This document shows positions 11,796 through 59,269 of a DNA stretch of 64,000 nt, one piece after another. The DNA is from Octopus vulgaris (lineage: Eukaryota), in the NCBI GenBank assembly GCA_951406725.2, contig OX597818.1:2790001-2854000 (forward strand), written 5' to 3'. A program made the position numbers and the translations under genes. The notes under the pieces are model-generated. The model did no database searches. It saw only the letters and a list, made by a program, of their open reading frames with translations, and was not told the origin of the DNA. The first letter of the stretch is position 1. Each line of letters opens with the position of its first letter.

Positions 11796-11810
11796 AGGTA
11801 GCTTGCTAAC

Positions 11811-12499
11811 TGCTACCAAGTTGTCGTATGTGAAAAATTGAACATTTGAAGCACAACCACAGGTAAGGCATTTGTTTTTTGGGAGCTTAGTGAAGTCTGT
11901 TGTCCGTATGGTTATTATTTTTTCGAACGAGGGTCTCCACTGAGTTCCAGACATTTGTTTGCCAGTGGTCTTACTAAAAGACTCACATTTTAGTGAGAAT
12001 TATGTGAGTTTTCGGGAGGTGTGTCACTCCAAAAATTTTTTGGAAATTTCTATGACTGTGTTTGTGCTCTTTCAAGTGGATTTTTACCATAAAGGATAGG
12101 AGTACAGCCAGAGTTGGATGGAATACTATTTGTGCTATGAAGGACTACCAGTTTGGATTCCCAGAGTATCAGAATTGTGTTGTGTTGCCATTTTGGACTA
12201 TCTTCCTTCGCTCTTTCTTCTCCTGTCTGTCTTTCTGATCTTTTTCGAATTTCTTTATAGACTTTCATTTGAACATTTTGATTTTGGCTTGTGGATTTTA
12301 ATTTTTTTGGCTATCAACATGGCAACTGTGAAATCCACTTTGGGGTGGCAAATTGTGACCCCCAAAGAATGGTTGAAAAATTATATGGAGAGAACGGTAG
12401 TGTTAAGGGCCTATTCCAGGGTCCTTGACACCATCAAGGTCTTCTCTGAGGAAGAAATTGAGGAGGAGTTGGTAGACTACCTGCCAAATGTTAGGTTTC
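11811..12499 (+). mobile_element. 5' fragment (UTR and ORF1 start) of the ORF1-only Tx1-like family at 32133-34215
   Basis: 11811-12030 is the reverse complement of ~33985-34215. MATVKSTLGWQIVTPKEWLKNYMER is homologous to MAIKCKKALEWRIVAPKEWLKNYDER. Truncated by the CATA array. Confidence 0.8.
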
Positions 12500-15400: not shown

Positions 15401-17155
15401 TACATACATACATACATAAATACATACATACATACCCACATACATACCTACATACATAATACCTACATACCTACCATACATACATACATACATACACATA
15501 CCTACATACATACATAGATACATAAATACATACATACCTGCATACCCACATACATAACTACATACCTACCTACATACATACATACATACATACATACATA
15601 CATACATACATAATACCTACCTACCTACCTACATACATACATACATACCCACATACATACCTTTTTACATACCTACCTACCTACATACATACATATATAC
15701 ATACATGCATACATACCTACCAACCTACATACATACATACATACGTACATACCTACATACATACATACATACATACCTAGATACCTACATACATACATAC
15801 ATACCCACATACGTACCTACATACATATACATACCCACTACCCACAAACATACATACATACATACATACATACATACATACATACCCACATACTTACATA
15901 CATACATACATACATACATAACCACATACCTACATGCATAACTACATAAATACATACCTACCTACGAACCTACCTACCTACCTCCATACATACTTACATA
16001 CATAAATATCCACATATCTGCATACATACGTACATACTTACATACATACATATACACATACATACCCACATACATACCTACATACCAAACTATCTACCTA
16101 CCTGCATACATACATATCTACCTAACTACCTACCTACCTACATACATACATACCCACATACCTACATACATCCCTACATAACTACATACTTACATACATA
16201 CCCATATACACACATACATACCTACCTACCTACCTACATACCTACCTAATACCTACATGCATACATACATACCCATATACCTATATACATACATACATGC
16301 ATACATACATACATACCTACCTACCTACCTACCTACCTACATACATACCCACATATCTACCTACTTACATACCTACCTTCCTACATACATACATACCCAC
16401 ATACCGACATACATACCTACATACCTACCTACATACATACATACCCACATACCGACATACATACCTACACACCTACCTACATACATACATACATACCCAC
16501 ATACATACAAAAATACATACCTACGTACATAATACCTACCTACCTACCTACTTATATACATACATACATACATACATACACACATAGCTACATACATACC
16601 TATATACATACATACATACATACCTACCTACCTACATACATACATACCTACATATATACACACATACATACATACCTACATAAATACATACATACATACC
16701 CACATACATACCTACAAACATAATACCTACATACCTACGTACCTAGCTACATACATACATACCTACATACCTACATACGTACCTACATACATACATAGAT
16801 ACCCACACATACCCACATACATACCTACATACCTACCTACCTAACTGCCTACCTACCTACATACATACATACACACAAATATACCTACATACATACATAC
16901 ATACGTACATACATACATAAATACATACATACATACCTACATACATACATAGATACATAAATACATACATACCCGCATACCCACATACATAACTACATAC
17001 CTACCTACATACATACATACCCACATACATACCTACATACATAATACCAACCTACCTACATACATACATACCTTTTTACATACCTACCTACCTACCTACC
17101 TACATATATACATATATACATACATACATACATACCTACCTACCTACAACCTACA

Positions 17156-17190
<35 letters not shown>

Positions 17191-19455
17191 CCACATACCT
17201 ACATACATACATAAATATATACATACATATATACCTACATACATACCTACATATATACATACCTACATACATACATACATACCTACATACATACATACAC
17301 ACATACCCACGTACATACCTACATACATATATACCTACCTACCTACCAATATACATACATAAATACATACATACATATGTACCTACATAAATACATACTC
17401 ACATACATACCTACATGCATAATACCTACATACCTATGTACCTACCTACATACACACATACCCACATACATACCTACATACATACATACGTACCTACATA
17501 CCCACATACATACCTACTTACATACATACCTACTATCCTACCTACCTACAAACATACATACATACCAATATACCTACATACATACATACATACATACATA
17601 CATAAATACATACACACATACATACCTACATACATAATACCTACTTACATACATACAGACATACCCACATACCTAGATACATACATACATACCCACATAG
17701 ATACCTACATACATACATACATACATACTTACATACCTACATACATACATACCTAATACATACCCACATACATACCAACATACATACCTACCTAACCTCC
17801 TTCATACATACATACATACATATATACATACCCTCTACATACATACATACCCACCCACAAACAAACATACCTACATACATACCTACCTAACTACATACAT
17901 ACATACATACATACCCAAATACTTACATACATACCTAGATACCTACATACCTAACTATCTATCTACCTACCTTTTACCGTCATGCATACATACATACCCA
18001 TATACCTACATACATACATAGATACATACATACATACCTACATACCTACATACATACATACATACATAACCACATACCCACATATCTACCTACGTACATA
18101 CCTACCTACCTACATACATACATACAAACATACCCACATACGGACATACATACCTACATACCTACATACCTACCTACCTACATACATACATACATACATA
18201 CCCACATGCATACATACATACATACATCCATACATACCTACCTACCTATCTACCTACATACATACATACATACCCACATACCTACATATATACCTACCTA
18301 CCTACCTACATATATACATACATACCAACATACCTACATACCTACCTACATACATACATATATACATACATACATACTTACATACCCACATACATAACTA
18401 CATACATACCTACCTACCAACCTACCTACCTACATGCTGACATACATACATACATACCCACTACCCAGAAACATACCTACACACATACCTACCTACCTAC
18501 ATACATACATACCCACATACATACCTACCAACCTAGCTTCCTACTTACATACATACATACATACACACCCACATACCTACATACATACGTACATACATAC
18601 AGACATACCTACATACCTACCTACTTACCTACATACATACATGCATACATACATACATACATACAAACATACATACCCACATACCTACATACATACCTAC
18701 ATACATACATATATATACATACATACGTACTTACATACATAACCACATACCCACATACATAACTACATACATACCTACCTACCTACATACATACATATAT
18801 ACATACGTACATACATATCTACATACATACATACACACATACATACCTACATACCTACCTACATACAGACATACATACCCACTTACATACCTACATTCCT
18901 ACCTACCTACTTACCTATCTATGTACATACCTACCTACCTACCTACATACATACAGATATACCCACATACCCATATACATACCTACATACATACCTACCT
19001 ACCTACCTACATACATACCTACCTACCTACCTACATACTTTTATACATACATACCCATATACGTACATGCATAACGTCATACCTATATACATACATACAT
19101 ACCCACATACCCTCATACATACCTACAAACATACCTACCTACCTACTTACCTACATACATACATACCCATATACCTACATACTTACCTATATACCTACAT
19201 ACATACATACCCACATGCCTACATACATACCCACATACCTACATACATACCTACATACCTGCATACATAATTACATACCCACATATCCAAATACATACCT
19301 ACATACATACCTACCTACCTACCTACATACATAGATACATACATACCCACATACCTACATAACTACATACATCCATACATACACACACACACATATACAT
19401 ACATACATACATACATACCCACATACATACCAACATACCAACCTACCTACCTCCC
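12500..19455. repeat. Large degenerate (CATA/CCTA/CCCA)n tetranucleotide array with higher-order structure, interrupted by LINE pieces
   Basis: Seen directly. Further tracts at 21290-21497, 23650-23835 and, on the opposite strand, 25985-26100. This array produces the spurious HTYI-type ORFs. Confidence 0.95.
12939..15150 (+). mobile_element. 5'-truncated RTE LINE (RT domain, 3' UTR, (GAT)n tail), split at 13451-14176 by microsatellite
   Basis: RT motifs QFGFMPGKST, AFVDMEKAFD and GVHQDSVLSPLL in 12945-13450. The ORF resumes LQAITEEFKTGCP.ELLYADDL at 14177. Confidence 0.9.
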
Positions 19456-19464
19456 TACAAACAT

Positions 19465-21287
19465 GAAAATTGAAAAGTAAGAACGCTTCAAAATCGCGGC
19501 AAACGCCAGTAGCAATCCAAAAACCTTCTTCGCCCATGTCCAACGGAATTCCCGCTTGAACAATTAAATTGCAATGTTGGTAGACTCAACAGGCGTATCG
19601 ATTGAGGACCCTTATCAACAGAGTCAATTATTTGCCGAGGCTTTTTCAAACAAGATGATGGTCGTGAACCCCCTCCATTTGATAGATCGGTACCTCCAAT
19701 GCTTCGATTGGTCATCACATGGGACGAAGTCAGACGTGTTATTCAAGGCCTCGATGTCAACAAGAGTCACGGCCCTGACGGCATACACCCATGGGTTATC
19801 AAAGCATTGGCTCCGGTCATCTGCGAGCCCTTAACACGTCTGTTGAATATGTCATTGGCGACGGGTGGTATACCTGCGGACTGGAGAACAGCGATAATCT
19901 GCCCAATTTTCAAGAAAGGGAGCCGCGAAGACCCGCCTAACTACCGACCGGTTTCCCTTACATCAATAATCAGCAAGATGTTTGAAACCATCCTTAAGTA
20001 AAGTATGATGCTCCACCTCCAAAACACAGCCTCTATCTCTGATTCCCAACACGGCTTCGTGCCGAAGAGATCATGCTTGACCAACTTACTGGTAATGGAA
20101 GAATTGGTGACACGCATCCTCGATGATTGTGATGCTGTTGACATCGTTTTATTGGATTTTGCCAAAGCTTTTGACACGGTAAACCACTATTACTTGTCAA
20201 GCTTCAAGCATATAGTTTCCATCCGGATATTGTATGATGGGTCGGTGCCTTCCTCTCCGATCGCTCCTTCCAAGTCCAAGTAAATGGTTCGCGGTCCGAC
20301 GTCTCCAGTGCGAGCAGTGGCATGCCTCAAGGTTCAGTGCTTGGGCCCTTATTGTTCTTAGTCTTGATAAATGACTTGCCCGATGACCTCACGCAACACA
20401 CCCTTCTATTTGCCGATGATGTCAAACTGGCCGCTCCTCGCGGTGATATAGAGGATCTTCGTCGATGCCTCCACCAAATTTAGAGGTAGTCTAACGAATG
20501 GGACCTGTGTCTGAACATGTCAAAGTGCTGTCATCTGCCTGTTGGCTCTCCTCCTGCAACTCAACTTGATTTCGAGCCGGGTCGTCTGCTGCTGGAGAGG
20601 ACCGATCAGGTAAAGGACCTGGGTATCTTGGTGGATTCCTCCTTTTCACCTTCGGCCCAGTGCGTCCATGCTGCCAACAAAGCACGTGGAATTCTGTTCT
20701 TGATTCGACGGTCATTCGGAATGCTCACAGCAGCCATATTCCTACCGCTCTATGTCACGCTGGTGAGACCCATATTGGAGTACGGGATTCAAGCCTCTTC
20801 TCCTTATCTCCTCAAAGACATACAGCATCTCGAAAGAGTCCAGAAGCTGGCTATCCGCATGGTTCATGGTCTCAAGAATTTGTCTTATGAGGAAAGGCTG
20901 AAGACGCTCGACCTTTATTCTCTAGAAAAACGCCACCGCCGTGGTGATCTCATTCTCGCTCACAACATCATAAGCGGAAAGTGTAACCTCTCGAAAGAGC
21001 TGTTCTTCACTCCTGCTCCAGAGCGTCGGCTGTGGGGTCATTCCGAAACGCTCTACCTGCGACGATTTAATCTCAATCGAAGGAGAGGAGCTTTCTCCGT
21101 CCGGGTTGCGGATCCGTGGAACAAGCTGCCAGACGAGATGGTGAAGATGCTGACGACCGCTTTGTTCAAAGTCTCCCTTGACCTCAAGTGGCCTGAACTC
21201 TTTACATGAACACCACCCTGTACTTAACTCTATGTCCCCCTACATGGCCTTGCTTTTTGCTTTTGAGCCAAAAAATTAACTAACTAA
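19465..21287 (+). mobile_element. 5'-truncated CR1-clade LINE (RT, C-terminus and 3' tail)
   Basis: KSHGPDGIHP, NYRPVSLTS, QHGFVPKRSCLTNL, LDFAKAFD, LFADD, LVRPILEY and WNKLP motifs. Tail (TAAC)n. Few disruptions. Confidence 0.9.
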
Positions 21288-21497
21288 TATATACATACAT
21301 ACCTATATAAATACCTACATTCCTACATACATACATATATACATACATGCATACATACATACCCACATACATATGCACATACCCACATACATACCTACAT
21401 ACATACCCACATACATACCTACATACCAACCTATCTACTTACCTACATACATACATACACACAAACATATCTACATATTACCTACCTACCTATATAC

Positions 21498-23646
21498 AAT
21501 CAAGGGAAATGTAATAGATAACTTTAGGCCCATCACTCTGCTTAATGCAGACTTGAAAATTTTGGCCAAGGTGCTAGCCAAGAGGTTGGCGCTTGTCATC
21601 GAGAAACTAGTCGACAAGGCGCAAACATGCACCCTGCCGGGCCGGGCCATCCACGACATCCTCCACCTGATGCGCTATATCATAGACAGGGTAGTTAACG
21701 AACCTGGCATGGGTGGGGCGCTGATCAATTTGGATCAATCAAAAGCTTTCAATAGGGTGGACCATCGATACTCAGAGCGGCTGACTTCGGTCCCGTCTTC
21801 CGCAGCTGGATAGCTGCTTTGTACAGAAGCATCCGTTCGGTAATTCGCGTGAATGGACATCTATCGAGACCTTTCGACATCGCACGTTCGGTCCGTCAGG
21901 GATGCCCCCTCTCGTCGCTTCTATACAGATTGACTCTCGAGCCATTATTGCGGAAGCTGGCAACTTTGAGGGGCATCCCGCGAGAACTGGGATGCGGGAC
22001 GAGCGTGTCTGCATACGCGGATGATGTCACCATCATAGTGTCTAGCCACGAGCACATCGAGCAGGTCGGCGAGACACTGAAAAACTACAAAGGGGTGACA
22101 GGAGCGAAAATCAACCGGGAAAAGTCAGTGGGCTTGCGACTAGGCACCTGGAGAAGCAAGCCCATGCCGTCCACCAGCGCCTCCGTCGTGGGACGCTGGA
22201 CCAACGGCCCAGTCGAGTTGCTCGGGGTCTGGTTCAGACCGGACCTCCAAGTGGAGAAGAATTGGAACGAGATAACGAGTAGGGTGGTCACTCTCACCCG
22301 GCAATGGGCCGAGAGGAAACTGTCCCTAAAAGGTCGGTTGGAGGTGGCGAACACGTACATCGCGTCCGTCATCTACTACCGCCTGACCGTCGTGCCTTGT
22401 CCCGACTCTACCATCACCAAACTAGAACGCATTCTCTTTCGCTTCTTGTGGAAAGGATGCGTCCCGATGGTCAGGCGATCCATTTGCTGTCAACACCCAT
22501 TAAAAGGAGGAATGGGCATGCCGTGGTTGATGATGCGCAGACACGCGCTGAGACTACAACATCTCAGGCTCTTGGTAGACGACGGTGAACAGGTGTGGTT
22601 GCCGTTTGTGAGGCATGCTTTCCCGCAGCTCGTCTCCATGACCGAACTGCAATCGTGGATTAAAAAGAGGCCGAGGAAGGGCGAATGGCACCGCGAGTTT
22701 CGCGTTGCTCTCAAGCAACTCTGCCGTCCTGGGTCACCCTTGAGTGACTCCATCACAACCAAAGCATTCTATAGGGGATTAGTGGAGGGGAGGTACGACG
22801 ACGAGCTCAGGGCAAACCTGGACGTCGACGAGGAATACCTGACCCGCCTGTTCTGCACGCACTCATGCAGTGTCCAACAATTTCCGACCTGTGAGCTTAT
22901 GTCAAACAACTGCTGTCATGTGTGGGACAAGTCGGTTTATCAGCTGAGTCTATCGTCAATATTGTCACGCCTCCTTCCTTCAAACAGGAAGCAAGAGCTA
23001 TTTTCATCATCCTTGTGGCTATGGCGAAAGAATGTATCTGGTGGACGCGTCTGAAAGGATTGGAGACAAACACTTTCCTCTCTGGTCAACCTCTCATCAA
23101 TTTCTTCAAGTACCACTTCAAAAGGAAAGTGAGAGTAGAGAGGCAAGTTTTGTCTAGCGAATGTTTTAAAAAAAGATGGGTGAATGTAGCAAGGATGGCA
23201 CGTATGAATGACGAAGCCACCTTGAGCATAATCCTATGAACCCAGAAACTGAAAACAGAGGGTTACCCACTTGCAAACAAATGTGGTAACATATAACAAT
23301 ATTGACCAAGGGTACCGTGGTCTTACTTGCTTTCCCCTTTACACCATATATCATAACACTGATACACGATCCCTATTGATCGGTTTTTTTTTCCTCTTCC
23401 CCTTTTTTCTTCTTTTTCCATTTCTCTTTTCTTTTGTTCCTTTTCCTTTTTTTTTTCTTTTTTATTTTATTTATTTTTTTTTTTTTGTTCTTTTCTTCCC
23501 TTTTACGATCCCTCTTGATCGAAAACCTACGCCACCCCACCTTTTTTTTGTTTCTTTTGTTTTTTGTTTTTTTCATCCCCCAAAAGAAAAGCTCTACCTT
23601 GTAACTTGTCCCATCTGTGTGCAGCCCTGTGTGGCCAATAAAGAAA
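21498..23646 (+). mobile_element. 5'-truncated Tx1/L1-clade LINE (RT, 3' UTR)
   Basis: FRPITLLNADLKILAK, LDQSKAF, VRQGCPLS, AYADD and KLSLKGR motifs. T-rich 3' UTR ending GCAGCCCTGTGTGGCCAATAAAGAAA. Confidence 0.9.
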
Positions 23647-23835
23647 CTTATCTACCTACCTACCTACATACATACATACATACCCACATACCTACATACA
23701 TTAATACATACATACATACCCATATACCCACATACCTACATACATACCTACATACCTATATACATACATACATACATACATACATACATACATACATACA
23801 TACATACATACATGCATGCATGCATGCATGCATGC

Positions 23836-25985
23836 CCCCTCGTTATCGAGAATGGCCATTGCATGAAGCTTAACTGTTACTGGTGCTAAGATCTACAACG
23901 TCATGTACAGAATTGGCAGCTGAAACCTTTACTGGTAATAGCCGTCTGTAATTGTAACTGGGCTTTATGTACCTTTGTATGTTGTTTAAGTCCACCTGCC
24001 GAATTACACTCTCTTCCACATGCCTGACAGATATGATTAGTATGGTGTGTAACACCACCACCAGTGGCCAGGTTGTCACTTATCTGTCTCGCTTTATGAC
24101 TACGAAGATGACTCTTGAGTTCAGCTTTACTGAGACAGGGTCTTGCACAGACACTGCATGACAGCATCATAGGAAGACCCTTCCCATCTGGAAGTGTACC
24201 AGTGATGCCCTTCCTGACATCCCTACTTACTTTCTCATGTGCAACTCGAGATTTCTCAAAAGTAGCTGTCCCCTCGTGCATAATCCTTCTCCATCTGCTA
24301 CGATCAATAGCTATGCCCTCCCATGTGTCAGGATAAATGCAAGCATCTCTTAAGAGGAGCCTTCAGCAAGCCCTTATACCTCTTTTTTTGTTTATGTGGC
24401 GGTCGTTCTCATTTAGCTAACTCTCCATAAAAGAGTTGTTTTGGCATCCTTGAATCATTCATCTTGACCAGATGACCACTCCATCTGAGCCTTTGCTTTA
24501 ACACAAGAGTATCTATACTTTCACACTGAGAGCCTTCCAATATTTCAAGATCACTGATGCGGTCCTCCCACTTAATGCCATAGATTCGTCTGAGACACAT
24601 CTGATGGAAACGTTCCAGTTCTTTAAGGTGGTATCGATATGTGACCTACATTTTGCAGGCATAGAGAAGAGAAGGGAGCACCTTGTACACCTTTATCTTT
24701 GTCTTTCTGCATATGTCTCACCGACTCCAGAGGCACCTTTCTAGCCTTCCGAAAGCAACACTTGCTTTCCTAATTCTATATGGAATTTCATCATCCAAAT
24801 TGCTATATCTATTAACAGTGCTTCCCAGGTAGACAAACTGAGCAACTACATCAAGTCGTTTACCATACACATAGATATTTGGTACACTATACTGCTTGCC
24901 AGGGGCAGGTTGGTACATGACAACAGTTTTCTTGAGATTGACTATCAATCCTAAGGTAGTGCAAGCATCAGAGAATGCATTCAAAATGTGTTGCATATCA
25001 ATCTCTGTGTGTGCTACTAGATCACAATCATCTGCATACAAAAGGTCTCTTATGATAGAGGTAAATACCTTTGTTTTTGCAGCAAAGCGCCTGATATTAA
25101 ATATGCTGCCAGAGATTTGATAATGGATGTGAACACCATATCTATAGTTTCTGAATGCAATACAGAAAACTATTGCAAAATATATGGCAAATAGGGTTGG
25201 TGCCAGTATATCCCCCTGTTTCACTCCATTTTGTATTGAAATAGGCTCCGACATTTTCCCTCTAACATTAACCCTACCCTTCATGTCTTCATGAAAAGAC
25301 CTAACCAAAACAAGGAACTTTTCAGGACACCCAAGTTGCTGGAGGACTTTCCACAATGCTTTTCTATTGACGGTATCAAAGGCTTTTGTCAGATCGACAA
25401 AAACCTGATACAAATCCAGACCCTGTACCACACACTTCTCCTGAAGCTGTCTAGCTGAAAAGATCATATCAGCAGTGCCACGTCCCACATGAAAGCTAGA
25501 TTGACTTTCTGGAAGAACACAATCTGCAACATATTTCAGCAGATGATCCAGAAGTACCCTGCATAAAACCTTTCCTACGAAAGCAATGATATTCCCCTAT
25601 AATTACCACAATCATTCCTGTTGCCCTTTCCCTTATGCAAGACCACCATTACTGTATCTCTCCAATCCTCAGGTACAGATTCACTAGCCCATATCTTACC
25701 AAACAAAGAGTGAAGTTGCTGCAGAAGTTACCACCATGCTGTAACAACTCCGCATGTATGCCATACCCGGAGACTTCCCATTATTCATCCTTGAGACAGC
25801 CACTGCAACTTCATCCAACTCTGGTGGTTCTGCGAGTGCTGCCTTCACAGGTAATCCAGGGATGAGATTGAGAACATCCTCACTAACTACAGACTGCTGA
25901 TTCAAAAATTCATCAAAGTGTTCTTGCCACCTTCGCAGAATTTCTTGTGAATCACAAAGAAGTTCTTTACCATCCCTGCTTTGAA
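23836..25985 (-). mobile_element. RTE-BovB-like LINE fragment (RT and C-terminal C2H2 fingers)
   Basis: ORF 24718-25488 has FVDLTKAFD, GVKQGDILAP and LLYADD. ORF 23901-24281 has CSVCARPC..H..H and CQACGREC..H..H. Confidence 0.88.
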
Positions 25986-26849: not shown

Positions 26850-28290
26850 TGGTGACTTTCAGTCTTTCTCATACTCTTCAGATGGAGAAGTAATGGGTGA
26901 ATATACATCTACTAATACCTGTGAGGATTATTAAAAATGCTGTAAATCAGCCTGAAATCATTAAAAAAATTTGTAAATGAAAAGTCTTCCCATTTTTCCA
27001 TTCACACCCATCAGATTAGGAAGTATTGCGTAAATTAACATATATTTACTAATAGATGAGAAGATTACATTTACCAAACATTCTATTAAAGCTTCCACCT
27101 TTCTCAGAAATCATGTACATCAAAAATGTTGCAAAGCAGTGTGAAATCATTCGAGAATTGCAAAATGGAAAATTGTTTTCTCAGGCTAATATTCAACATT
27201 AGCTGTTAAGCTTTCTCAATCACACTTGTCAGATTGAGATATAATATTTTAAAATACATTTACTAATAGCTGTGATTATTACATTTACCAAATATCTCAC
27301 TGAAGCTTCAACCTTTCTCAGAAAACATTAATATCGAAAATGTTAGAAATCAGTGCAAAATCATTTGAAAATCTTGAAAAGTAAAATCGCTGGTTTCTCA
27401 GGCTAATATTCAAAATTTTTATCTTTCCATTTTCCTCATATATACCCTTCAGATTGAGAAGTATTGGCTTAATTGATATATGTTTACTAATAGCTGTGAA
27501 GATCTTGTTTACCAAATATTTCACTGAAGCTTCCACCTTTCTCAGAAATCATATAAAACAAAAATTTGTAAATCAGCGTCAAATCACTTGAAAATTTTGA
27601 AATGGAAAATTGTTGGTTTCTCAGCATATACTTTCAATTTTTCTCACTAACAGATTGAGATGTAATGAGTTTATATTCATTTAGAAATAGCTGTGAAGAT
27701 TATATGTATCAAACATTTCCCTGAAGCTTCAACCTTTTACAGAAAACATGTACAGCAAAAATGTTGCAAAGCAGCATAAAATCATTTGAAAATGGCAAAA
27801 TGAAAAATTGTTTTCTCAGGCTAAAAATATTGCATATTTGTGACTTTGAATGTTTCTCACCTATGCTTGTCAAAGTGAGAATAAATAGGTTAATACATAT
27901 TTACTAATAGCTGTGAAGATTGTATTTACCAAACATTTCTCTTTCACAGAAAGCATGTACATCACAAATGTTGCAAATCAGGGTGAATTCATTCAAAAAT
28001 GATGAAATGAAAATTTGTTGTTTTGTGACTCAATTTTTCTCACATTTCTCAGATTGTGAAGTAATGCATTAAAATTCATTTACTAATAGCCATGAAGGTT
28101 ATACTTTCCAAACATTTCACTAAAGCTTCAACCTTTCGTAGAGAACATGAATATAGAAAATGTTGTATATCACTGTGAAATCATTCAAAAATTGCTATTG
28201 ACTTTCAATTTTTCTCACTTACGCTTGTCAGATTACTAAGTAATACATTTACTTATAGCTGTGTATACTATATTTATGAAACATTTCACT
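26850..28290. repeat. Degenerate tandem satellite, ~8 units of ~180-220 bp
   Basis: Recurrent TTTACTAATAGCTGTGAAGATT..TTTACCAAA..CACTGAAGCTTC..CCTTTCTCAGAAA core. Detached copies at ~29130-29345 and ~31290-31345. Confidence 0.8.
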
Positions 28291-29729
28291 GAATTAACAA
28301 TACTAACAAATCTACGATGGAAGCATACAATGAGGGAGGGAAGTCATAACAGCAGTATGTATTGAGAAATGTGTAAGTGGACTTGATAGGGTTACTGGAT
28401 GATGTCTTAGAGAAATCACATTATTGTTGGTGATTCTATTGCAGCTATGTGACATGTGTTTGCAACTAAGTGACATATGATGATGATTCACTCACAAACT
28501 GAATAGGCTCCCAGCCCCTGTATCATGAAAGGTTATGTGAACCATTCCTAACAAAAGCCAGAACTTCCTTTGACATAAAAAACATTAAGAAAAAATGCTA
28601 TTTAGATATACTTTTCTTTTAGTTGTTTACACTATTTTACATTTGTTTTTTATTCTTATACATTCAAAGCTCACAAATTTTCTAATTTAAATTATGAAAT
28701 TTTGATAATATCATTATGATTACAAAACTTCTTTGTAGACTATATTTTCTGCTTGGTCGACACTAATTTTCCAATTACTGGAGTCTGTTGCTCTACTCGT
28801 GACGTATAACTGGACATGTGTAAACATTGGAGTGGGTAAAAATACACCTACACGATCTAAAAATCTGGCCTTGTGCCTTATTTGCTGTAAATGCATGAGC
28901 GGAATCTTTAGGATTGCAAAAAATTAAACTAAGACTTACCTCTTACTGTTCTATATGAATAATATCTAGATGTTCTGGTACTATGGGTTATTTTGATTGA
29001 CAAAACTGAGACATAAACAACAGTTGCTTCGATTAGCCATTTTGAATCCTGCTTGAGACTGACACACTTCAATAACCACTGAATAGTCACACTATTTACT
29101 GTCCTCGCAACTCCCTTTGTATCTACAATGGGCTTCCACCTTTCTCAGAAATCATGTACATCAAAAATGTTGCAAAGCAGTGTGAAATCATTCGAGAATT
29201 GCAAAATGGAAAATTGTTTTCTCAGGCTAATATTCAACATTAGCTGTTAAGCTTTCTCAATCACACTTGCCAGATTGAGATATAATATTTTAAAATACAT
29301 TTACTAATAGCTGTGATTATTACATTTACCAAATATCTCACTGAGATATGATGAAAATCCAGAGTTACTTGTGGTTGGTGAATTCTTAATAAAAATGTGT
29401 AGGTGGTTTATCAGTTCAAAAATTGATATCCATGAAATAATCATCCTTTCTGATATTTTAATGCTAAAAACCTTCCTGATGGCTGTCTTTGTAATCCTAA
29501 AAAATATCGTAACCATTGGTCCAGCCATCTGGCCTTGAAGAGGGAACAGACAAAAAGACAGACAGATGGACAGACGCCCAAATCTGTCCATCTACGATGG
29601 GAAACAGAGCAAGAGTATCACAAATCTAAACTTTCTAAAGTCACAAACAATACAGCGGGGGTGGAATCCAGAGTTTATCTTTGTTGCCAGAATTTTTAGA
29701 AGATGATGATGTTGATGATGCTGATGAAA

Positions 29730-31749: not shown

Positions 31750-32132
31750 CTTTTATTCTTTTACTTGTATCAGTCATTTGACTGCAGCCATGCTGGAGCA
31801 CCACCTTTAGTTGAGCAAATTGACTCCAGGACTTATTCTTTGTAAGCATAGTACTTATTCTCTCAGTGTCTTTTGCTGAACCACAAAGTTACGGGGAGGT
31901 AAACACACCAACGTTGGTTGTCAAATGATGCTGGGGGGATGAACACAGACACACAAAAACATACAAATACACACATACATATATATATATGTGACAGGCT
32001 TCTTTCAGTTTCAGTCAACCAAATCCACTCACAAGGCTTTGTTCGGCTCAAGGCTATTGTAGGAGACACTTGCCCAAGGTGCCATGCAGTGGGACTGAAC
32101 CCGGAATCATGTGGTTGGTAAGCAAGCTACTT
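31750..32132 (-). mobile_element. tRNA-derived SINE, split by an insertion; its 5' head continues at 34216-34256
   Basis: Collinear with the intact copy at 43040-43485. Confidence 0.85.
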
Positions 32133-34215
32133 TATTTTATATCATTTGCCATAAAGGCAGTACACAGATATGTAGCTTTGCGGGCTGGATGATAATAATA
32201 CAAGATGATAAAGATGGGAGAAGACAGAAAGCGCCCACCGACCCTCTGCTTCTCTAAAACATTGTTCGTTAAAAACAACATATATAGAGGTATTAAACCT
32301 CTTACAAATAAATACAAAACGTTGGACTATAAGTCCATCACAAAGGAAACAAAATTTATACGCATACATATGTAGGTGATAAATCTCATACATTACTCCC
32401 CAATTAACTCTTTTGTGGCCTGCAGGTATTCCTGCAACCACCAATCGGAGCCAAAAAAAAGTAATCTGTATTTCTCCTTTGGGAAGGATCTTGACCTGTG
32501 CAAAAAATCTTTTCTTTACAGTACTAGTGCAGCCACCTGTGAAGGCCACTCTGGACTGTCAATAAAAATCAGGTCCATCAGAACCTGAATATCAAGATTA
32601 TTTTCCACATACTCCTCATTCGCCCCCTTCCCTGTGATAGAGGAATACAAATTCCCCATCATTTTCATTGAGAGGGACCTCAACTACCTTGCTCAGTGGC
32701 ACACATCCCACTGATAAGGTTTCCTTCTTCTCCCCCTCCAGTGGCACACATCCCACTGAAGGGATTTTGGACATGCCATCGCCGGCAATGCTCCATTTTT
32801 CTTTTTCTTCTTCTTTCTTTTCCCCTTTGCAACGGGAGGGTGGAGTTCCTCCAACATGTCCGGAGGTCCCTCCTCCCCTCCTGCCACCTCAGAGTCCATC
32901 AGTAGGCAACCATTGTTTCCTACCTTCTTTCTCTTAGTACCTTTTCTCAAGGAGGTTACCTCCTTCTCGACTTTCCCCCTCTCTCCCTCCAATGAAGGAG
33001 CAGGAGGCGTTGTTGGAGGAACAGGGGGTTAACAGTTATCAATCAACTGGTCCAGGACCTTTGCCTGGTCCCAGCAATAGTTCTTCTTCATGTGCCCTGA
33101 TTCCAGGCACAGGTGACACTTGGGGGGGGGGGGGGGAGCATCCATCAATGATCACCGGGTGCCTGGAACAGGCTATTGTCAAGAAATCTAGTAAAACTAG
33201 ATCTTCGGCCAATTGGGTCCATAGGGTCAAAATTACTTTTGACCCGACCCAATCGACTGCAGGCAGTATTTTTACATTCAAGAGCCTGGTAGGGCCACCA
33301 CCCAGGCCTCGACAGATAGAATCTTCTATCCATTCAGTCTCTATACCGGGCAGCAGCCTACACACCCAGTCTCTTGTCAATTTACGCCCACCATAAGTGG
33401 AGAGAAACAACATCTTCCTCACATCTATAGGTTGGCTTGCAAATTTCTGAGCCTCCATTGAGGTGTCTAAAAGAACGCACACCGTACCGTACTTTGCACC
33501 CCTACGAATGAACCTATAAGTTGGTGCATACCCCTCCAACTTTTCTTCAATTTTAGCCTGAGAGAATACACAGATGGTGTCGCAGATCTTGCAATAGGTC
33601 CGCGACACCACCATTCTCTCATCATAGTTTTTTAACCACTCCTTGGGGGCCACAATTCGCCACTCCAAGGCTTTCTTACATTTGATTGCCATTAATAAAA
33701 TAAACTAAAATATAAAAGCCCACAACAAAATCAAAATGTTCAAATAAAATTCTCTGATGCAAACACAAAAGAGACAAGAGAAAAATAATGAAGGAAGACA
33801 GTTCAAATGACAACAAAATTCAACCCTGGTAATCCTTTGTAGCACAGTTAAAAATCCCTTGCAGCACAAAAATAGCAGCAAAAAATTCCTGGTTGTACTC
33901 CAAATGGTAAAATTCTGGTTGTACTCCAATTGGTAAAATCCACGAAGTGCAACACAGTCACATAAAATCATAAATTTTCGGAAGGACACACCTCCCAAAA
34001 ACAAACACAATTCTCACTAAAAAGTGAGTCTTTTAGTACGACCACTGGCAAACAAATGTCTGAACCCAGTGGAGACCCTTGTTCGAAAAGATAATAACCA
34101 TATGGACAATAGACTTCACTAAGCTCCCAAAAAACAAATGCTTTACCTGTGGTTGTGCTTCAAATGTTCAATTTTTCACAAACGATGTGACTTCCACTGC
34201 GACAACTTGGTAGCA
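32133..34215 (-). mobile_element. ORF1-only Tx1-like non-autonomous retrotransposon (HAL1-like) with 15-bp TSD
   Basis: TSD GTAAGCAAGCTACTT at 32118-32132 and 34216-34230. ORF1-like frames 33039-33692 and 32693-32992. No RT or endonuclease seen. A-rich 3' end. Confidence 0.8.
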
Positions 34216-36129
34216 GTAAGCAAGCTACTTACCACACAGCAACTCTTGCACCTATGCAGAAATAAATGTAACTGTTGATTTATCTAAGACAAGTCACACA
34301 TTCTAACTACTTCAATTACTTTGTCTACTCATTTTTCTCTCAAAAGCATGCTGACACCCCATTGCTGTTGCCTACCCACAAGAATTTGTAGCTATGCTCT
34401 TTGTCTGTGAGGAATCCAGCTGAAGCATCCCACTCTTACCCCTTGCACACAGATACATGTCCTTTCTAGCATTTAAATAATTTCACCTATCCTTCCTTTC
34501 ATTATATTGACATTAATTGTGGCTGTTCATAAACTACAGAAAACATATATGGCATTTTATGTTTTATAAATCATACATGCAATTCACTAAACTAACTGCC
34601 AGGATTACATAACTGCATGTTGAAATATTACATAATCTTATTCACTTCTTCAGTGTTTAGTAAAAAACACAAAGAATGGTATCCTCAATATGCAAATTAT
34701 CAATAGACATTAGCAGGATGGTTGAACCTAGGACAATATAACAGAAGACAAGCAAATAAGCACTGTTTTTTTTATATCTAAGTGGGCAGTTATGCATGTA
34801 CATTTGTCCACACTCACAACCATTCCTAATGTATATAAATGGGAGGATAGAAAAAGAGCAAGATAAGGGACAATCATAAAATCTTGTAGACAAGACAGCT
34901 TCAGCATCAGCCATCCCACAAACACCACCTCAAGATGCAAACCCAGCAACCTAATAGCAGGAACAGCTGCACTCATGTCATAAATCAAGGTCAAAGATGT
35001 TTGTGGTCTGTTAATTGACAAGTTTATGATATCAGCTTCAAAGAATCTGTTCTTTGGAAGACAAATATATATATATAATATTATTTTTAAGAAGTATTTA
35101 TGCATGATTTCACTGGTAAACTAAGCATATAAATACACCATTTCTTCTTTATAAACAGTAAAATGGAAATTGTTTTGATATGATTCATGGTCTTTTATCA
35201 CTTGTCAGACAATAAATATCCATTCATCCTTCTGCCTATAAAGAAATCTTATAACATATCGCTATTTAAATCAAATACAAACAAGAACTTATCTGTAATG
35301 ATTAGACTAGATTGTATATCATGTGTTACTAATTAAGAACTATTTATGTACAACATAGTATATATTAAAACCTTGAGATAAATATAAAATAGTGAAACCA
35401 AACCTTCTGAATGTCTTAACTCTGCAACTGTAAACAGATGTAAATACGTCTGGTTATTCTTTTTACACACATTTAAATTCTGGTTCATGTTTGATTTAAG
35501 TAGTAATCTGCTGTAAGTTTCCTTAGAGAGCAATGGAATGCAAGACACTCATTTATCAACAAGTGTTAACGGATTGTGAAGTATGTCAAGACAGTCTATT
35601 TGTTATTCTGTGTGTGGAGAATAACAAGATGTTTAAAATTTTACAGCAAAGGCTATACGAAAATTATAGTTTAACAATACAGGATAACAATCCCATACTC
35701 AGTGTGTAACTTTGAGTTAATATGAATAATGATACATAATTTCATGTGCATATTCCTGAGATGGGGACATTGGACATGTGATTGTACATCCAATCACATG
35801 TACAAGGTCCCCATCTCAGGAATATGCACATGTGGATCCTTTAGAGAACATTTTTTTCTCAGATGTCTAGACTATCACTCTCAATATGGCTGCCACAAGT
35901 GTCAAAGCAATCCAGTGCAGACACACTAAGAATATTGCAATTTATTATCATTGAATGAGTGATGAATGGTGGAATTTAGGGCAGTAGATGGAGGATTGGT
36001 GAAGTACCAGTCAAAATGTCTTGTGGTACTGTTATGTATTTTTATGCTCTGAGTTCAAATCTCATCAGTAATATAGCAGTAATATTGATCACATGCCAAT
36101 AAAATTGATTATCGTTATTATTACTACTT

Positions 36130-37733: not shown

Positions 37734-38159
37734 CTTTTATCTACGAACTTATACTCTTCTATAATGAAGAATAACTGCAATTGATTAGACAAACATTTCT
37801 CTTAGGGAACCTTGGAAATAACCCTAACCCTAACCCTAATTCCATATCTCAGGGAACTATCATGATCATGATCATCATTATCCTTATCATCATCACCATC
37901 ATCATTTAACGTCCATTGTCCATGCTGGCATGGGTTGGATGATTTGATCAGAGCTGGAAGGCTGCACCAGACTCCAGTCTGATTTAGCATAGTTTCTATG
38001 GCTGGATTCCCTTCCTAATGCAGATCACTTTACAGAGTGTGCTGGGGGCTCTTACATGGCACTGCAGGGATGCTTTTACATGGTGCCACATGAGTTCTTT
38101 TACATGGCATTGCACAGGCATTTTTATGTGGAACCACATAGGTTCAACATGCTGAGAAA

Positions 38160-39170
38160 ATTCTCTAGGCTTTTGAAGTAATCTTTCTACCCGGCTTTTC
38201 CTTCACAGGGAGCATAAACAACAACCAACCTGAACACTTTACCACTGCAGTGCGTTACATCCAAAATGACCAGCCTGCCTTTCGGTTCTCTAAAGACAGT
38301 TCTAATCTCTAAATCCAGGTTTTTTCTGGCCAGCACTCCTCCGCCCCCTCCCAGTTGACAAGGAGAAACATATTTCTTGTAGCCGTTCAAACGATGTGAC
38401 CCAAGGTTGTTAAGGAGGTAGCCTTGCTTCCAATCTGACCCCAGGCTGCGAATATTTAAACAACCGAGTTTAAACGAGAACGTGAAAAATTAGTCGAATG
38501 TTTAAAACTTACTGTTTGAACGGGAGAGAGGGTGTAGTTTCACCCTCCTCTTTTCTGTCTGTAAGTGTTGTGGTTTGCGAGGTCATTTTTTTGCGAATTG
38601 CCGGTACAGATGTCTCGAAAAGTTCATCTGTAATGGGCCGACATCCTCCACAAAAGATTTTTTTAGTTCGAAATAGTCAGTGTTGTCTATGGTATAAAAC
38701 TCGACATTTTCAAGAATTATACTATTTAAATCTGTTGCGATATATTTTTTTGTCGATTTCATTAAACCAATTTGGTCTCTTAAGTGTTTATTATTTTTGT
38801 TTATCACCATGAAGGTGTTTCACTTTTTTATATTAGGCGATTGTGGAGGGGTGTGTGTGCTTGTAGGTGAGTGTGTGCTTGTGGTAGGTGTCTGTGTGTT
38901 TGTGTGTGCTTTTTCCAGTGTGTGTGTTTTATTTGGCTACGTGTGTGTTTGCGGCTGTATTTGTGGGTGTGGGTGTGCTTGTCTCTCTCGGAGCATAGTC
39001 CTGTGTATCTGAAGAGGGTGGGTTTTTTTGTTTCTGTCTTCTTTTTGAAGGTTCCACGGTGACCCACTCCTGGTTGTTGTTGTTGTTGTTGTTTTCTCCT
39101 GCTGTTGGCTGTACTTCAGCAATTTGTGTGCATGACGTGGCTGCTATTTCTAGCAGTGTGGTCGTTGTCT
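38160..39170 (-). mobile_element. Tx1/L1-like LINE 5' fragment (ORF1 end and start of APE endonuclease)
   Basis: ORF 38187-38390 GGGGVLARKNL...KGRLVILDV...FRLVVVYAP is L1/Tx1 APE-like. ORF1-like frames lie upstream. Confidence 0.7.
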
Positions 39171-43039: not shown

Positions 43040-43251
43040 GATTTACTCTTTTACTTGTTTCAGTCATTTGACTGCGGCCATGCTGGAGCATCACCTTTTT
43101 TAATCGAGCAACTCGACCCCGGGACATATTCTTTTGTAAGCCCAGTACTTATTCTATCGGTCTCTTTTGCCGAACCGCTAAGTAATGGGGACATAAACAC
43201 ACCAGCATCGGTTGTCAAGCAATGCTAGGGGGACAAACACAGACACACACA

Positions 43252-43305: not shown

Positions 43306-43485
43306 TATATACATATATACGACGGGCTTCTTTCAGTTTCCGTCTACCAAATCCACTCACAAGGCTTTGGTCATCCCGAGGCTATAGTAGAAGACACTTG
43401 CCCAAGGTGCCACGCAGTGGGACTGAACCCGGAACCATGTGGTTGGCAAACAAGCTATTTGCCACACAGCCACTCCTACGCCTAT
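43040..43485 (-). mobile_element. Full-length tRNA-derived SINE with internal (TA)n and LINE-derived tail
   Basis: Minus-strand A box TGGCTGTGTGG, B box GGTTCAGTCCC, tail CCAGCATGGCCGCAGTCAAATGACTGAAACAAG. Confidence 0.88.
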
Positions 43486-45074: not shown

Positions 45075-45107
<33 letters not shown>

Positions 45108-45111
<4 letters not shown>

Positions 45112-46028
45112 TTATAAACAAGGGCAAAAGAAAATTATTTCTATGCCAATATGCTGATAACAGACTTTTAAATCATCACTGTCCACATATTATTATACCC
45201 ACTACAGAAATACGATGTGCTGAAATCGAGGAAAGTTAGCCAACAGAATTTTTAAAAAGATCGTTATTTCTATATTGAATCAATTTCGGAATTAATCTCA
45301 TAAAATACTTTTTCCTCTTCAGTAGAAAATACGAATAGAAAGAAATGAAATACTTACATGCGCCCATGGAAAAAAAGCCGAAGCAAAAATCATGAGTACA
45401 CATAAGTACCCCAGATATATCTAAATATAAAATCCTTTGGTTAGCCTCAGCACACGTGTGAACTGTTCTCCACCACAGCTTATAGTGGTTACCAGTCCCT
45501 ATAGCTAATAGTAATAAATCTACTACTAATATAGGATGAAGTTCTTTTACAGAAAAAATTTCATCAAAAAAGTGGCAGCATATTAAAATACCTTTAAAGG
45601 TTAAAATTCTAAACAACTTATAAACAAGGGCAAAAGAAAATTATTTCTATGCCAATATGCTGATAACAAACTTTTAAATCATCACTTTCCACATATTATT
45701 ATACCTACGACAGAAATACGATGTGCTGAAATTGAGGAAAAAATCTTTTATGAGATTAATTCCGAAATTGATTCAATATAGAAATAACGATCTTTTTAAA
45801 AAATTCAGTTGGCTAGCTTTCCTCAATTTCAGCACATTGTATTTCTGTAGTGGGTATAATAATATGTGGAAAGTGACGATTTAAAAGTCTGTTATCAGCA
45901 TATTGGCCTAGAAATAATTTTCTTTTGCCCTTGTTTATAATTTTAACCTTTAAAGGTATTTTAATATGCTGCCACTTTTTTGATGAAATTTTTTTCTGTA
46001 AAAAAACTTCATCCTATATTAGTAATAG

Positions 46029-52540: not shown

Positions 52541-53323
52541 TTATGTAAAATATTAACTCTAGGTTTGAGCCAAACAGGTGATACAATGTGCCCATAGGTT
52601 TTTTTTTTTTATCTCTGTGCCAAAACTCCCTTAATTAAGAAAGCTGTTCTGGAAATGCAATAATATGGAAAGGTATTCCTAATATAACATCAGTGCATGA
52701 ATCGGGTAGTACTGGAAATTGAATATCAGCATATATTCGTCCTCGAAGAGCTATATCTAACTTGCAGCATGTTTTGATAGATGACTTAAAATTAACTGCA
52801 GCCATCAATATAGTACCATTATGCTGAAAAGTAGGAAGCTGAAGAGAGCTGATCATGGATTTTGAAAGGAAATTTTCCGAGCTTCCAGTGTCTAAGAGAG
52901 CTTTTAATGAAAATCCATTCATAGATATTGCTATGATCGACATGTTCAATGCGGAGAGAACAGAAGCATGAGGAGCAGTTTGAATTGATGCAGTAACTGA
53001 ATTTTTAGACATGCATACTTTTGAAAAATGACCAATCTTTTTGCATTTCCTACATTTAGTATTTTGTGTGGGACATTTAACATGCTCATGTCATGATGCA
53101 CTTCCACACCTGTAACAATGAGTCCAATGTTTTGATGTATTACTTGCTGCTGCATTTGTTTCCTCTAAATTTTAACTACCTTCTACACTTTAGCATTTCT
53201 TCACTTTGTTTCACTGTAGCAACATGGATTGACATTGGATCATAAATTTACAAGTCAGTATTAGCAATTTCCAAAGCACATGCCCGATCGATTACCGTAG
53301 TCAGAGTAAGTGATTTATTTTCA

Positions 53324-53544
53324 TCTCTCCCTCTTTTACGTTGTCTGCCATCCCCCCTCTTCCTTTGCTAAGAGCATTTTTAAGCCAGCCCGTCATATTC
53401 CCGTGTCAGGCAGAAGAACGAAATGTTCCCAAGATAAGAGAGTCTTTCTAATCTAATGTTGTGGTTGAGCTGTTTATTATTTATTATTATTACTATTATT
53501 AGTAGTATTAGTATTGTCCCTTTGATCCTCGGTCGAAAATTTGC

Positions 53545-53580
<36 letters not shown>

Positions 53581-53901
53581 TTACTATTTTCAGCTTCGCC
53601 TTGTATTGCATATTATTTCTCCATACAGGGGTTTTTTTCAATGGCGGCCCATTTTCGCGGGGTTCCACTATTTCCCTTCTCTCTCTCCCTCTTTTACGTT
53701 GTCTGCCATCCCCCTCTTCCTTTGCTAAGAGCATTTTTAAGCCAGCCCGTCATATTCCCGTGTCAGGCAGAAGAACGAAATGTTCCCAAGATAAGAGAGT
53801 CTTTCTAATCTAATGTTGTGGTTGAGCTGTTTATTATTTATTATTATTACTATTATTAGTAGTATTAGTATTGTCCCTTTGATCCTCGGTCGAAAATTTG
53901 C

Positions 53902-53937
<36 letters not shown>

Positions 53938-54259: not shown

Positions 54260-54295
<36 letters not shown>

Positions 54296-54617: not shown

Positions 54618-54653
<36 letters not shown>

Positions 54654-54976: not shown

Positions 54977-55012
<36 letters not shown>

Positions 55013-55334: not shown

Positions 55335-55370
<36 letters not shown>

Positions 55371-57648: not shown

Positions 57649-59269
57649 AATTTCTTTATTGCCTACAAGGGGCTAACACAAAGGGACAAAAAAATGGATG
57701 GAAAGGATGAATTAGATAAAAAATGATAAATGAAATGAAGCTGTTCGGCCCCACCTCCAAGCAACTTCATTTAGCCTGTTAATACAACCTTTAAAACATT
57801 TGTAACAGTTAACTTTCATCTCACTGAAAAATGTCTATGCTAAAATCCTTTAAAAGTTCAAAATGGCTTACCCATTCTGGTATTTTGCTGGTGTCAATTT
57901 TCTTGACCCAGCACTCAAAGTCTTCCTCATCATCATTTACTCTCAGAAAATACTCTGAGTCTGCCACCACACAATGATAGTGCCAGGGTAATCCAGTAAC
58001 TCCTGTTGTATTCACTTTTATCGTTTTGTTCCATGAGTCTATCTCAATATAAAGTTTATCATTTTGTCCATTGTACAATATAACATATTTTTCTCACAGG
58101 GCACTGGTGGGGAAGTTTGGGGCTCCTGTGTGCTTGTGCTTGTCTTTGTGTCAGGTGGAACATGGAGAGGGTTGGTCTTTGTAGGAGGAGGTTGGGGCAG
58201 AGTGGGTATGGGTGGGAGTCGGGTGGGTATGGGATGGGGGTCAACATTTACAAAGAGTGCTTTTTTCCTCCTTCTTTTTTTGCCAGCCATTTCCCATCTG
58301 TTCCTTTCCTTGGCACTGGTACTGGTTTTCATCAGCAGTGAAGGCTCAGTTTCCTTCCTGCTCTCAGGCTTCTTTTTAGTCTTCACCGATAGCATCGCAC
58401 AATCCTACCCTCCACTCTGACTCTGAGTGTCACTTCTTTGACTGTGATGATCTTGACCATGTTTTCAAGGTCTTCCAGAGCCACCTGGATTATCATATCT
58501 CGGTTCTGCCCTTACCAGTTCTTATGGGGCATTCTGGTGGCCTGGAGGACCACTACCTTCTCTTCTGTGCCCATGAGTATGGCAGCTACTAGCCAGGTTA
58601 TATCAATTTCTGGGGGTATATCCTCTACCCTAGCCCTGGAAGCATACCTCTCAAAGTATATGGGTAGAAGCACCACTTCATCCATTTTTAAGAGTGTTGC
58701 CAAGTGCAGCCTGGTAGTATCTACCTCCTGGAACCACACCTCCACTGTTCCAAACTTTCTTCCTCTGGCAAGGTAAAAAATCCCTTGCTAGATTGATTTT
58801 AATGCCTTTTCGACTTGAGCGGTTGACATGACTTCAATTTTCCTTGTTGTTATTGAATATGTCCTGTAAATAATAATCCTTTCCTTTGTCTCCTTTAAAA
58901 CTTCTTTGGGAAGGGACACCTTTACATTGTTCCCCTCCCTACGAAGCATGTTCTTGAATTTACTAAGATCAATTTCCTTACTGTGGCTTTTGGCCACTGC
59001 TACAAACTTCATATTCTTTTTCTCTCTTTGTTTGTCATTTGTGTCATCTGACCTTAGTAATACCTCCTTGGAAGACGTAAGCTCTGAGGAGCTGAGGTTT
59101 TCATAGTTCATTTTTAAACACCAGTGCTACCCCCTTTGAACAAGGGGAAAACAGTCAATAAAACTGCTGTAAAGCAGCAAAACAAAGTCTTTATAATACA
59201 TGAAACAATTAAACAGTGTTGTAACAACAAATTGCGACTTACTGACAGATGATTTCAACTGTCATTTTG
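57649..59269 (-). mobile_element. Second ORF1-only Tx1-like (HAL1-like) family with ~17-bp TSD
   Basis: TSD TACAATTCGACCACCTC (57632-57648) and TACAATTTGACCATCTC (59270-59286). ORF1-like frames 59111 to 57821 (VSLPKEVLKETKERIIIYRTYS resembles IVAPKEWLKNYDERMVVSRTYC). 3' end GTGTTAGCCCCTTGTAGGCAATAAAGAAA resembles the Tx1 3' end. Confidence 0.75.

Follow-up and report, generated by a model that had tools for sequence, protein, structure and literature searches.

We analysed a 64-kb stretch of the Octopus vulgaris genome (positions 2,790,001 to 2,854,000 of contig OX597818.1, assembly GCA_951406725.2; hereafter the window), in which a retroelement of 2,083 bp lies on the minus strand at 32133-34215, inside a short interspersed element (SINE). 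The element is bounded by an exact 15-bp target-site duplication (TSD), GTAAGCAAGCTACTT, and carries a decayed open reading frame 1 (ORF1) and no detectable remnant of ORF2 (Table 1). The 15-mer occurs exactly twice in the 64-kb window, at the two ends of the element, and no further site there matches it at 14 or more of its 15 letters. The element of 2.08 kb with a perfect 15-bp duplication that an earlier interpretation of the letters alone (the sequence-only reading) had described was thus recovered as such; given the ambiguity of the junctions, the true duplication would be 13-15 bp.

Table 1 Features of the element, its host SINE and its relatives in the window.
Feature	Position	Strand	Basis
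Host SINE head, 5' piece with A-box-like motif (34242-34232)	34231..34253	-	alignment to empty copy 43322-43482
Upstream TSD copy, AAGTAGCTTGCTTAC on the element strand, within the quasi-palindrome	34216..34230	-	exact 15-mer match
5' untranslated region (UTR), 523 bp, 35% GC, starting TGCTACCAA	33693..34215	-	comparison with copy 2
ORF1 N-terminal part, 189 aa from ATG at 33692, predicted RRM-type region	33126..33692	-	60% identity over 184 aa to XP_029652367.1
Frameshift at a 15-nt homopolymer (G15, 33122-33136), then degenerate CCHC zinc knuckle	33032..33136	-	sequence reading
ORF1 C-terminal region, low-complexity, proline-rich and basic, after internal stop 33031-33029	32696..33031	-	49% to XP_029652367.1 residues 186-275, down to 32825
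3' region without detectable ORF2 remnant; tail GCC-loop-GGC-AAT	32133..32695	-	six-frame tblastn, BLASTP, Pfam, shuffled alignments
Downstream TSD copy	32118..32132	-	exact 15-mer match
Remaining host SINE: B-box-like motif (32101-32091), core, (TA)n tract, 3' body	31752..32117	-	alignment to other copies
Copy 2: 13/15 target-like flank (11796-11810), 5' UTR and first 60 ORF1 codons, in an RTE-like fragment	11796..12498	+	comparison with copy 1
Third, distantly related ORF1-bearing element, no ORF2-sized interval, Tx1-like tail	57650..59130	-	29% over 135 aa to XP_029652367.1, E 7e-13

The host SINE runs on the same strand as the element. With the insert and one TSD copy removed, it aligns without a gap to an empty copy at 43322-43482 (141/161 identical positions), and past its (TA)n tract the 3' body is 83% identical to the body of the same empty copy (43042-43249). 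The insertion point falls between the A-box-like and the B-box-like motifs of the SINE, which are about 44 nt apart in the empty copy, i.e. at the spacing of a transfer RNA (tRNA), when read by eye against the consensus. The position and orientation of the insert are those of the sequence-only reading; the tRNA origin of the SINE, also claimed there, we infer only from these motifs, because ARAGORN found 0 tRNA genes, Rfam gave no tRNA match, and no cloverleaf was found. A 1994 paper reportedly names three tRNA-derived octopus retroposons in its title. A search for a TSD flanking the host SINE as a whole found none of 6 nt or more. The repeat is high-copy and interspersed: the window contains three more copies, and in each run 809-1,474 public contigs (see below) show the empty form continuing at 32132; SINEs together account for 11.6% of the O. 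vulgaris assembly (PMC13282606).

The target is a quasi-palindrome, GGTAAG-TAGCTTG-CTTACC, with CTT/AC on both strands, and the first bases of the element, TGCTACCAA, nearly repeat the TGCTTACCAA of the target. In the empty SINE at 43445-43466 (minus strand), the target hairpin carries paired changes in both arms, GGCAAA...TTTGCC replacing GGTAAG...CTTACC, and folds better than 200/200 shuffled sequences; these changes possibly reflect template-switch correction of the quasi-palindrome.

As had been claimed, the coding content is confined to an ORF1-like protein, and this copy of it is broken by the frameshift at 33122-33136 and the stop at 33031-33029. A phmmer search of 1.84 billion proteins yielded 4 matches, the best of them the 281-aa Octopus sinensis protein XP_029652367.1, annotated as 'uncharacterized', and a profile search with ORF1 yielded 3 proteins. 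XP_029652367.1 is intact, and the window ORF1 is colinear with it on both sides of the frameshift (E 1e-74; 60% over 184 aa, 49% over 101 columns). No match came from word-indexed searches of proteins with the window ORF1, and Pfam assigned no family to its pieces. Transposase_22 was matched neither by these pieces nor by XP_029652367.1, on which zf-CCHC reached E=0.058, below the Pfam cut-off. By Atlas features, XP_029652367.1 lies nearest to CCHC/RRM/ZCCHC3-like clusters (0.90-0.93) with a structural template-modelling (TM) score of 0.46 (<0.5), and the broken ORF1 piece of the window reached a top score of 0.78. The ORF1 profile matched 0 PDB sequences, and the AlphaFold model of ORF1 (pLDDT 37, the model's own confidence score) was too poor for use. 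ORF1 looks like type I (RRM plus CCHC), as a lead rather than proof; this type is associated with the Tx1 group (PMC5203782). A tandem duplication with a 45-nt offset lies near 32759/32714 in the C-terminal region. Pattern searches with XP_029652367.1 in metagenomes gave no confirmed locus among 595 pattern matches, and DNA patterns from the conserved 5' UTR gave 0 matches in metagenome, genome and viral contigs, collections in which octopus DNA is not expected. In another O. sinensis protein, XP_029639579.1 (K02A2.6-like), 46 residues of the ORF1 N-terminus (52% identity) are fused to an integrase-like region; it is probably a chimeric gene model spanning nested elements.

Six-frame tblastn of the region between ORF1 and the tail revealed no ORF2 remnant, and BLASTP and Pfam were blank for the same region. 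Its alignment scores against the ORF2 and endonuclease (EN) fragments of the window were matched by 100/200 and 14/200 shuffles, respectively. We rejected a 138-aa stop-free frame at 32145-32558 as an ORF2 remnant, which shows no similarity to the C-terminus of the window ORF2 or to Pfam families; part of 32133-32695 may be a decayed ORF1 extension. The element thus shows no trace of the ORF2 with an apurinic/apyrimidinic-type (APE) endonuclease and a reverse transcriptase (RT) that marks the Tx1 clade, to which it could belong only as a derivative and not as an autonomous member. The stem-loops of the tail are no more stable than shuffles, and we therefore do not claim a structured tail.

The sequence-only reading had likened this 3' end to that of an autonomous Tx1 long interspersed element (LINE) at ~23610-23646. 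The likeness holds, weakly: 27 of 37 columns match the LINE tail at 23613-23649. The anchored score of 34 (23610-23649) was reached by 0/42,430 other 40-mers sampled from the window, but one unrelated 80-nt segment scored 35, i.e. above 34, when the scan was unanchored. The LINE at 21.5-23.65 kb contains RVT_1 by Pfam and is flanked by a (TACA/TACC)n tract, not by a SINE. The closest solved structures to its ORF2 fragment (21756-22850) are those of human L1 ORF2p (E 4e-17 to 1e-16, versus 2e-8 for R2), a result that places it in the L1 superfamily and no more narrowly; the Tx1 label comes from its motifs. With a tail match of 27/37 and an end in a microsatellite tract rather than a SINE, this LINE is a relative at best and probably not the partner.

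The build of the element recurs in public sequence data. Of 24 listed runs, 12 contain its words; these come from six studies and four organisms, and contigs from 4 of the 12 (X1, X6, X8 and X9, one per organism) were compared at 80% likeness. The statements on single contigs that follow hold among the 32 contigs listed, outside of which stand 86,174 further contig rows. Tiling used 23 of the 32 (6.8-15.3% differing letters) and left out nine, namely records 2, 6 and 30 (near-identical to the window), 17-20 and 23 (duplicates of used contigs) and 31. All 30 of 30 bins of the element are covered in 4/4 runs, with several distinct contigs at nearly every listed site, and between 32133 and 34146 all positions but 33348 are bridged with at least 31 letters per side. 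The interval from the ORF1 end to the tail is bridged by contigs of 10-14% divergence. Because diverged contigs from four organisms tile from ORF1 to the tail, the ORF2-less build is a family trait and not a private deletion, and amplification as a multicopy ORF2-less form is found here as in HAL1. Of the half-Tx1 family proposed from the letters, the ORF1-only, multicopy, non-autonomous LINE derivative stands and the direct link to the LINE tail at 23.6 kb is not supported; a simple internal deletion of an ORF2-bearing element, the finding that would have overturned the proposal, is disfavoured.

At 40 or more listed sites, including the stop at 32518-32516, nearly all other contigs differ from the window copy, which therefore carries private decay; indel rows overlapping the stop at 33031-33029 appear in X1, X8 and X9, and not in X6. 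One to five contigs of very high depth (e.g. 2,390 in X1; single listed contigs 10-25) have small insertions at 32168-32172 and hint at a more abundant, homogeneous sequence with the same tail, which would be a better lead to the partner than the LINE at 21.5-23.65 kb; contig depth is not a copy number, and summed depths were not used as such. A joint from 33230 to a SINE piece at 34218 was also seen in X1 and X9 (side of 23 letters), together with depth peaks at 33065-33289, and a short palindrome at 33208-33253 inside ORF1 coincides with a depth peak and the joint. As candidates for truncated copies, the joint and the peaks are probably spurious, sited at a homopolymer and the short palindrome.

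Two diverged contigs carry the 3' junction. The tail joins the B-box side of the SINE at the same junction as in the window in X6 record 9 (32094-32487; 48 differing letters, 21 gaps) and in X9 record 25 (32092-32430; 40 differing letters, 22 gaps), which makes at least one further SINE junction. The ~12% difference of the X6 contig marks it as a paralogue and not an orthologue, because organisms A, B and C share contigs that match in length and match exactly or nearly in their number of differences (records 10/18, 12/19 and 3/13/20); this control covers these three organisms and not organism D. Insertion at one fixed nucleotide is thus documented at about two loci, by the exact 15-bp TSD and the same 3' junction in both records. 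For comparison, Kojima calls a family target-specific when more than 20% of its flanks are of one repeat type (PMC4494074). The proposal that the family uses an abundant SINE as its target accordingly gains a second locus type at the same SINE position, and loses the support that copy 2 was thought to give.

Copy 2 is confirmed as a diverged copy in RTE surroundings. It starts at 11811, with the same first 15 bases as copy 1, directly after AGGTAGCTTGCTAAC, a 13/15 match to the target that has a chance of ~1.3e-6 for a fixed position. The two copies are 91% identical over the first 250 nt and 73% identical over the ORF1 start (11811-12498 versus 33513-34215), a mosaic that suggests 5'-end exchange or constraint between subfamilies. 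The 3' part of copy 2 is lost in a (TACA)n tract, so that it has no testable TSD. Upstream, the RTE-like frame ends in Y-R-G (11799), three other RTE fragments of the window continuing with I-K-L or I-S-L, and the 11 nt after the frame end match the SINE at 10/11. In the simplest reading, SINE-derived sequence arrived with copy 2 and was joined at an AGGT/AAGT microhomology; alternatively, given that the RTE fragment at 13038 reads AGAGGT-ATCA-AGCT, the flank may combine native RTE resemblance with a small deletion. From copy 2 it follows that this target sequence is also found at the 5' end of a divergent subfamily. The match is best read as travelling with the element and not as a second target hit, and the concern that the 15-mer belongs to the element's own 5' end is partly borne out by copy 2. 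The insertion of copy 1 is not undone by this, because both of its TSD copies are contiguous with SINE sequence.

Collectively, these observations suggest that the element, itself decayed, belongs to a multicopy ORF1-only LINE derivative, likely of Tx1-clade origin. It sits in an abundant SINE between A- and B-box-like motifs with a 15-bp duplication, and the family likely reaches this site repeatedly through an EN and an RT borrowed from an unseen autonomous partner. We consider this reading moderately probable, and several observations weigh against it. The SINE junction is seen at only about two loci, and records 9 and 25 may be one locus. None of the listed contigs bridges the 5' junction (34147-34215 is unbridged); the table of contig loose ends is dominated by the SINE, and 1,557 further rows, 5'-junction rows included, lie outside the listing. 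Copy 2 is not inside a SINE, no ORF2-bearing partner with a closely matching tail was seen, and the clade is assigned without an RT. The RRM call comes from Atlas features of 0.93 with a TM score of 0.46, under 0.5, and an AlphaFold pLDDT of 37. Moreover, the tiling pools contigs of different loci and runs, no single listed piece spanning the stretch, and X9 record 28, aligned over only 337/529 letters, departs from the element at 32764 and has 192 unaligned letters, so that some forms must carry a different upstream sequence. Divergence is also similar for the host SINE (88% to another copy) and for the paralogues (85-93%), which fits the spread of a composite unit as well.

Such a composite would have arisen from one landing in a SINE, after which a unit of SINE head, ORF1 and SINE tail spread as one, either mobilised by the LINE partner of the SINE or carried along in segmental duplications; copy 2 would be a 5'-truncated copy of the unit. 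This would account for the SINE junction in diverged contigs without any targeting, for the short SINE-derived flank of copy 2 with its microhomology, and for the similar divergences of host and element. We nevertheless think it unlikely. The two TSD copies are still identical though the window copy differs at 40 or more listed sites, which for 30 nt is only suggestive; the difference between copies 1 and 2 is 27% where ORF1 begins and 9% in the first 250 nt, which does not look like uniform decay from one event; the element has a LINE-type tail of its own; and no TSD was found around the host SINE as a whole. The same rival was raised by Kojima for SINEU-3 and was excluded there by means of 5'-truncated copies (PMC4494074).

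More doubtful still is an untargeted or weakly targeted HAL1-like family, inserting widely with a fixed SINE-derived 5' end and striking SINEs at times through their abundance and the 5' homology. Copy 2 in its RTE fragment, the related element at 57.6-59.1 kb without a SINE flank and the large SINE share of the assembly would all be expected of it. Against it, contigs of a second type, 12% diverged, run unbroken into the SINE at the position found in the window, and a high SINE copy number would not by itself single out one nucleotide. That a full-length Tx1 element lying by chance in a SINE became shortened here by an internal deletion private to this copy is very improbable, since the ORF1-to-tail interval is bridged by diverged contigs and neither an EN start nor an RT or C-terminal remnant is detectable on either side, despite the decayed ORF1, the one contig that leaves the element (X9 record 28) and the 80 L1-Tx1 consensus families of O. 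vulgaris (PMC13282606), whose sequences lie outside the comparison.

Having no RT, the element needs a partner. In target-primed reverse transcription, the first nick falls on the antisense strand at the upstream edge of the TSD. Under repeated targeted insertion, the reading we prefer, the element RNA would be packaged by its own ORF1 protein and passed to the ORF2 protein of the partner through a 3' tail common to both. A nick made by the partner in the antisense strand at CTT/AC would leave a TT end able to pair with the terminal A's of the RNA and to prime reverse transcription; a symmetric second nick would produce a 13-bp core duplication if the leader of the element supplies the last AC. 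Transcripts would carry about 11-15 nt of the SINE target at their 5' end, by read-through or earlier capture, which would explain the target-like flank of copy 2 in the RTE fragment, and such a SINE-derived 5' leader may help the complementary DNA to anneal at SINE sites.

A wider picture is possible, and we offer it tentatively. An octopod half-Tx1 lineage may have used one quasi-palindromic SINE-head site as a landing pad for long enough to split into subfamilies, keeping the SINE-derived 5' leader to guide the joining of the second strand by homology. Each insertion would part the A and B boxes and kill the promoter of its host, ORF1-only Tx1 derivatives would have arisen more than once, and three tiers would coexist: the SINE, an autonomous SINE-targeting Tx1 and the ORF1-only passenger.

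The third element (57650-59130) has a decayed ORF1 and a tail within ~0.75 kb, closer to the Tx1-like tail (score 39.5); neither a SINE flank nor a TSD was found for it. It is probably a second ORF1-only lineage, and ORF1-only derivatives may be a general feature of the O. vulgaris genome. It also has a 90-aa open stretch after the linker (57824-58093) without a Pfam match. A C-terminal extension common to this element and copy 1, seen by eye, was rejected, its best alignment being no better than shuffles (46/200). Elsewhere in the window, very long (TACA/TACC)n tracts (12400-21500 and 23650-23840) are interleaved with several LINE fragments, RTE-like at 12945-13450 and others at 19600-21200 and 21490-23650; the tracts are either a microsatellite-rich insertion sink or an assembly artefact. 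A tandem array of 9-10 near-identical units of 357-359 bp with (TAT)n tracts occupies 53275-56624, and a degenerate repeat with a period of ~200-220 bp and one near-exact pair (regions of 27035 and 29076) occupies 27035-29342. A decayed LINE piece at 38150-39150 (minus strand) has an endonuclease-like frame (38190-38489, no Pfam match) after a CA-rich, lysine/threonine-rich region. Inverted repeats resembling miniature inverted-repeat transposable elements lie at 61072-61539 (136 nt, 98%) and 45085-45967 (174 nt, 89%).

Several known systems share parts of this organisation. The original description of HAL1 (half-L1) is said to be that of Bao and Jurka in 2010. HAL1 is a non-autonomous L1 derivative that encodes only ORF1p, and it resembles our element as an ORF1-only LINE derivative amplified as a family (PMC5753468). 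It has several independent origins, to which the probable second ORF1-only lineage at 57.6-59.1 kb would correspond here. In contrast to the element, HAL1 derives from mammalian L1, whose ORF1 is of type II, Transposase_22 (PMC5203782), and the HAL1 passage of PMC5753468 contains nothing on site specificity. With an ORF1 that has no Transposase_22 match and looks like type I, the element, judged by its sequence, works like HAL1 but is not a HAL1. Drosophila HeT-A, a member of the Jockey clade, offers a second comparison. It is likewise a gag/ORF1-only non-LTR (long terminal repeat) element without pol that is moved in trans to a specific target; unlike our element, HeT-A is added to chromosome ends, with no internal nick or TSD (PMC5537684). 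For our element, the TSD, the tail and the lack of an RT point to probable mobilisation in trans by an autonomous LINE.

Dewa and Mutsu are autonomous two-ORF Tx1-clade elements with sequence specificity for multicopy targets other than SINEs. Keno, specific for U2 small nuclear RNA (snRNA), and Kibi/Koshi, specific for microsatellites, share this property (PMC4494074) and in this respect would resemble our element, yet they are autonomous two-ORF elements whose targets are genes or simple repeats, not SINEs. Closer in target type are Tx1 families that insert into transposons: Tx1L in Tx1D, the Tx1-Mar LINEs and SINEU-3 in Mariner-N4_AMi, Tx1-9_AMi in Harbinger, and Tx1-8_Crp and Tx1-4_AMi in LTR elements (Kojima 2015, PMC4494074), so that being a 'parasite of a parasite' is an established Tx1 strategy. 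There, too, a fixed site in an abundant transposon is used, a non-autonomous passenger shares the site, TSDs are ~16 bp, and 5' extensions come from the flank or the target. The differences are that the target here is a SINE head between A- and B-box-like motifs in a cephalopod host, that the passenger is a 2-kb ORF1-coding half-LINE and not an snRNA-headed SINE such as SINEU-3, and that the specificity is read from about two loci here and from hundreds there (PMC4494074).

Our literature searches found no paper on ORF1-only or SINE-targeting Tx1 elements in cephalopods; Repbase, Dfam, the PMC13282606 consensus library, Bao and Jurka 2010, and Kojima and Fujiwara 2004 may already contain the family. 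In the available text and supplement of the 2026 O. vulgaris annotation (PMC13282606), the terms nested, target, HAL1, autonomous and ORF1 have 0 hits, and Tx1 occurs in tables only. Both ingredients are known, the one from HAL1 and HeT-A and the other from Tx1L, Tx1-Mar and SINEU-3, and we did not find their combination in print. Because both are established, the finding would be neat rather than startling to a specialist.

In conclusion, the O. sinensis entry that RefSeq lists as 'uncharacterized protein LOC115225585' likely represents the ORF1 of a retroelement and not a host gene. If confirmed, the targeting reading would extend half-LINE biology beyond mammalian HAL1 and Drosophila HeT-A into the Tx1 group, and the SINE head would join the list of Tx1 targets. 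Genome comparison could then test why the passenger keeps its ORF1, possibly under purifying selection, and whether target-derived 5' leaders guide precise integration, and identification of the partner would yield a new sequence-specific APE endonuclease.

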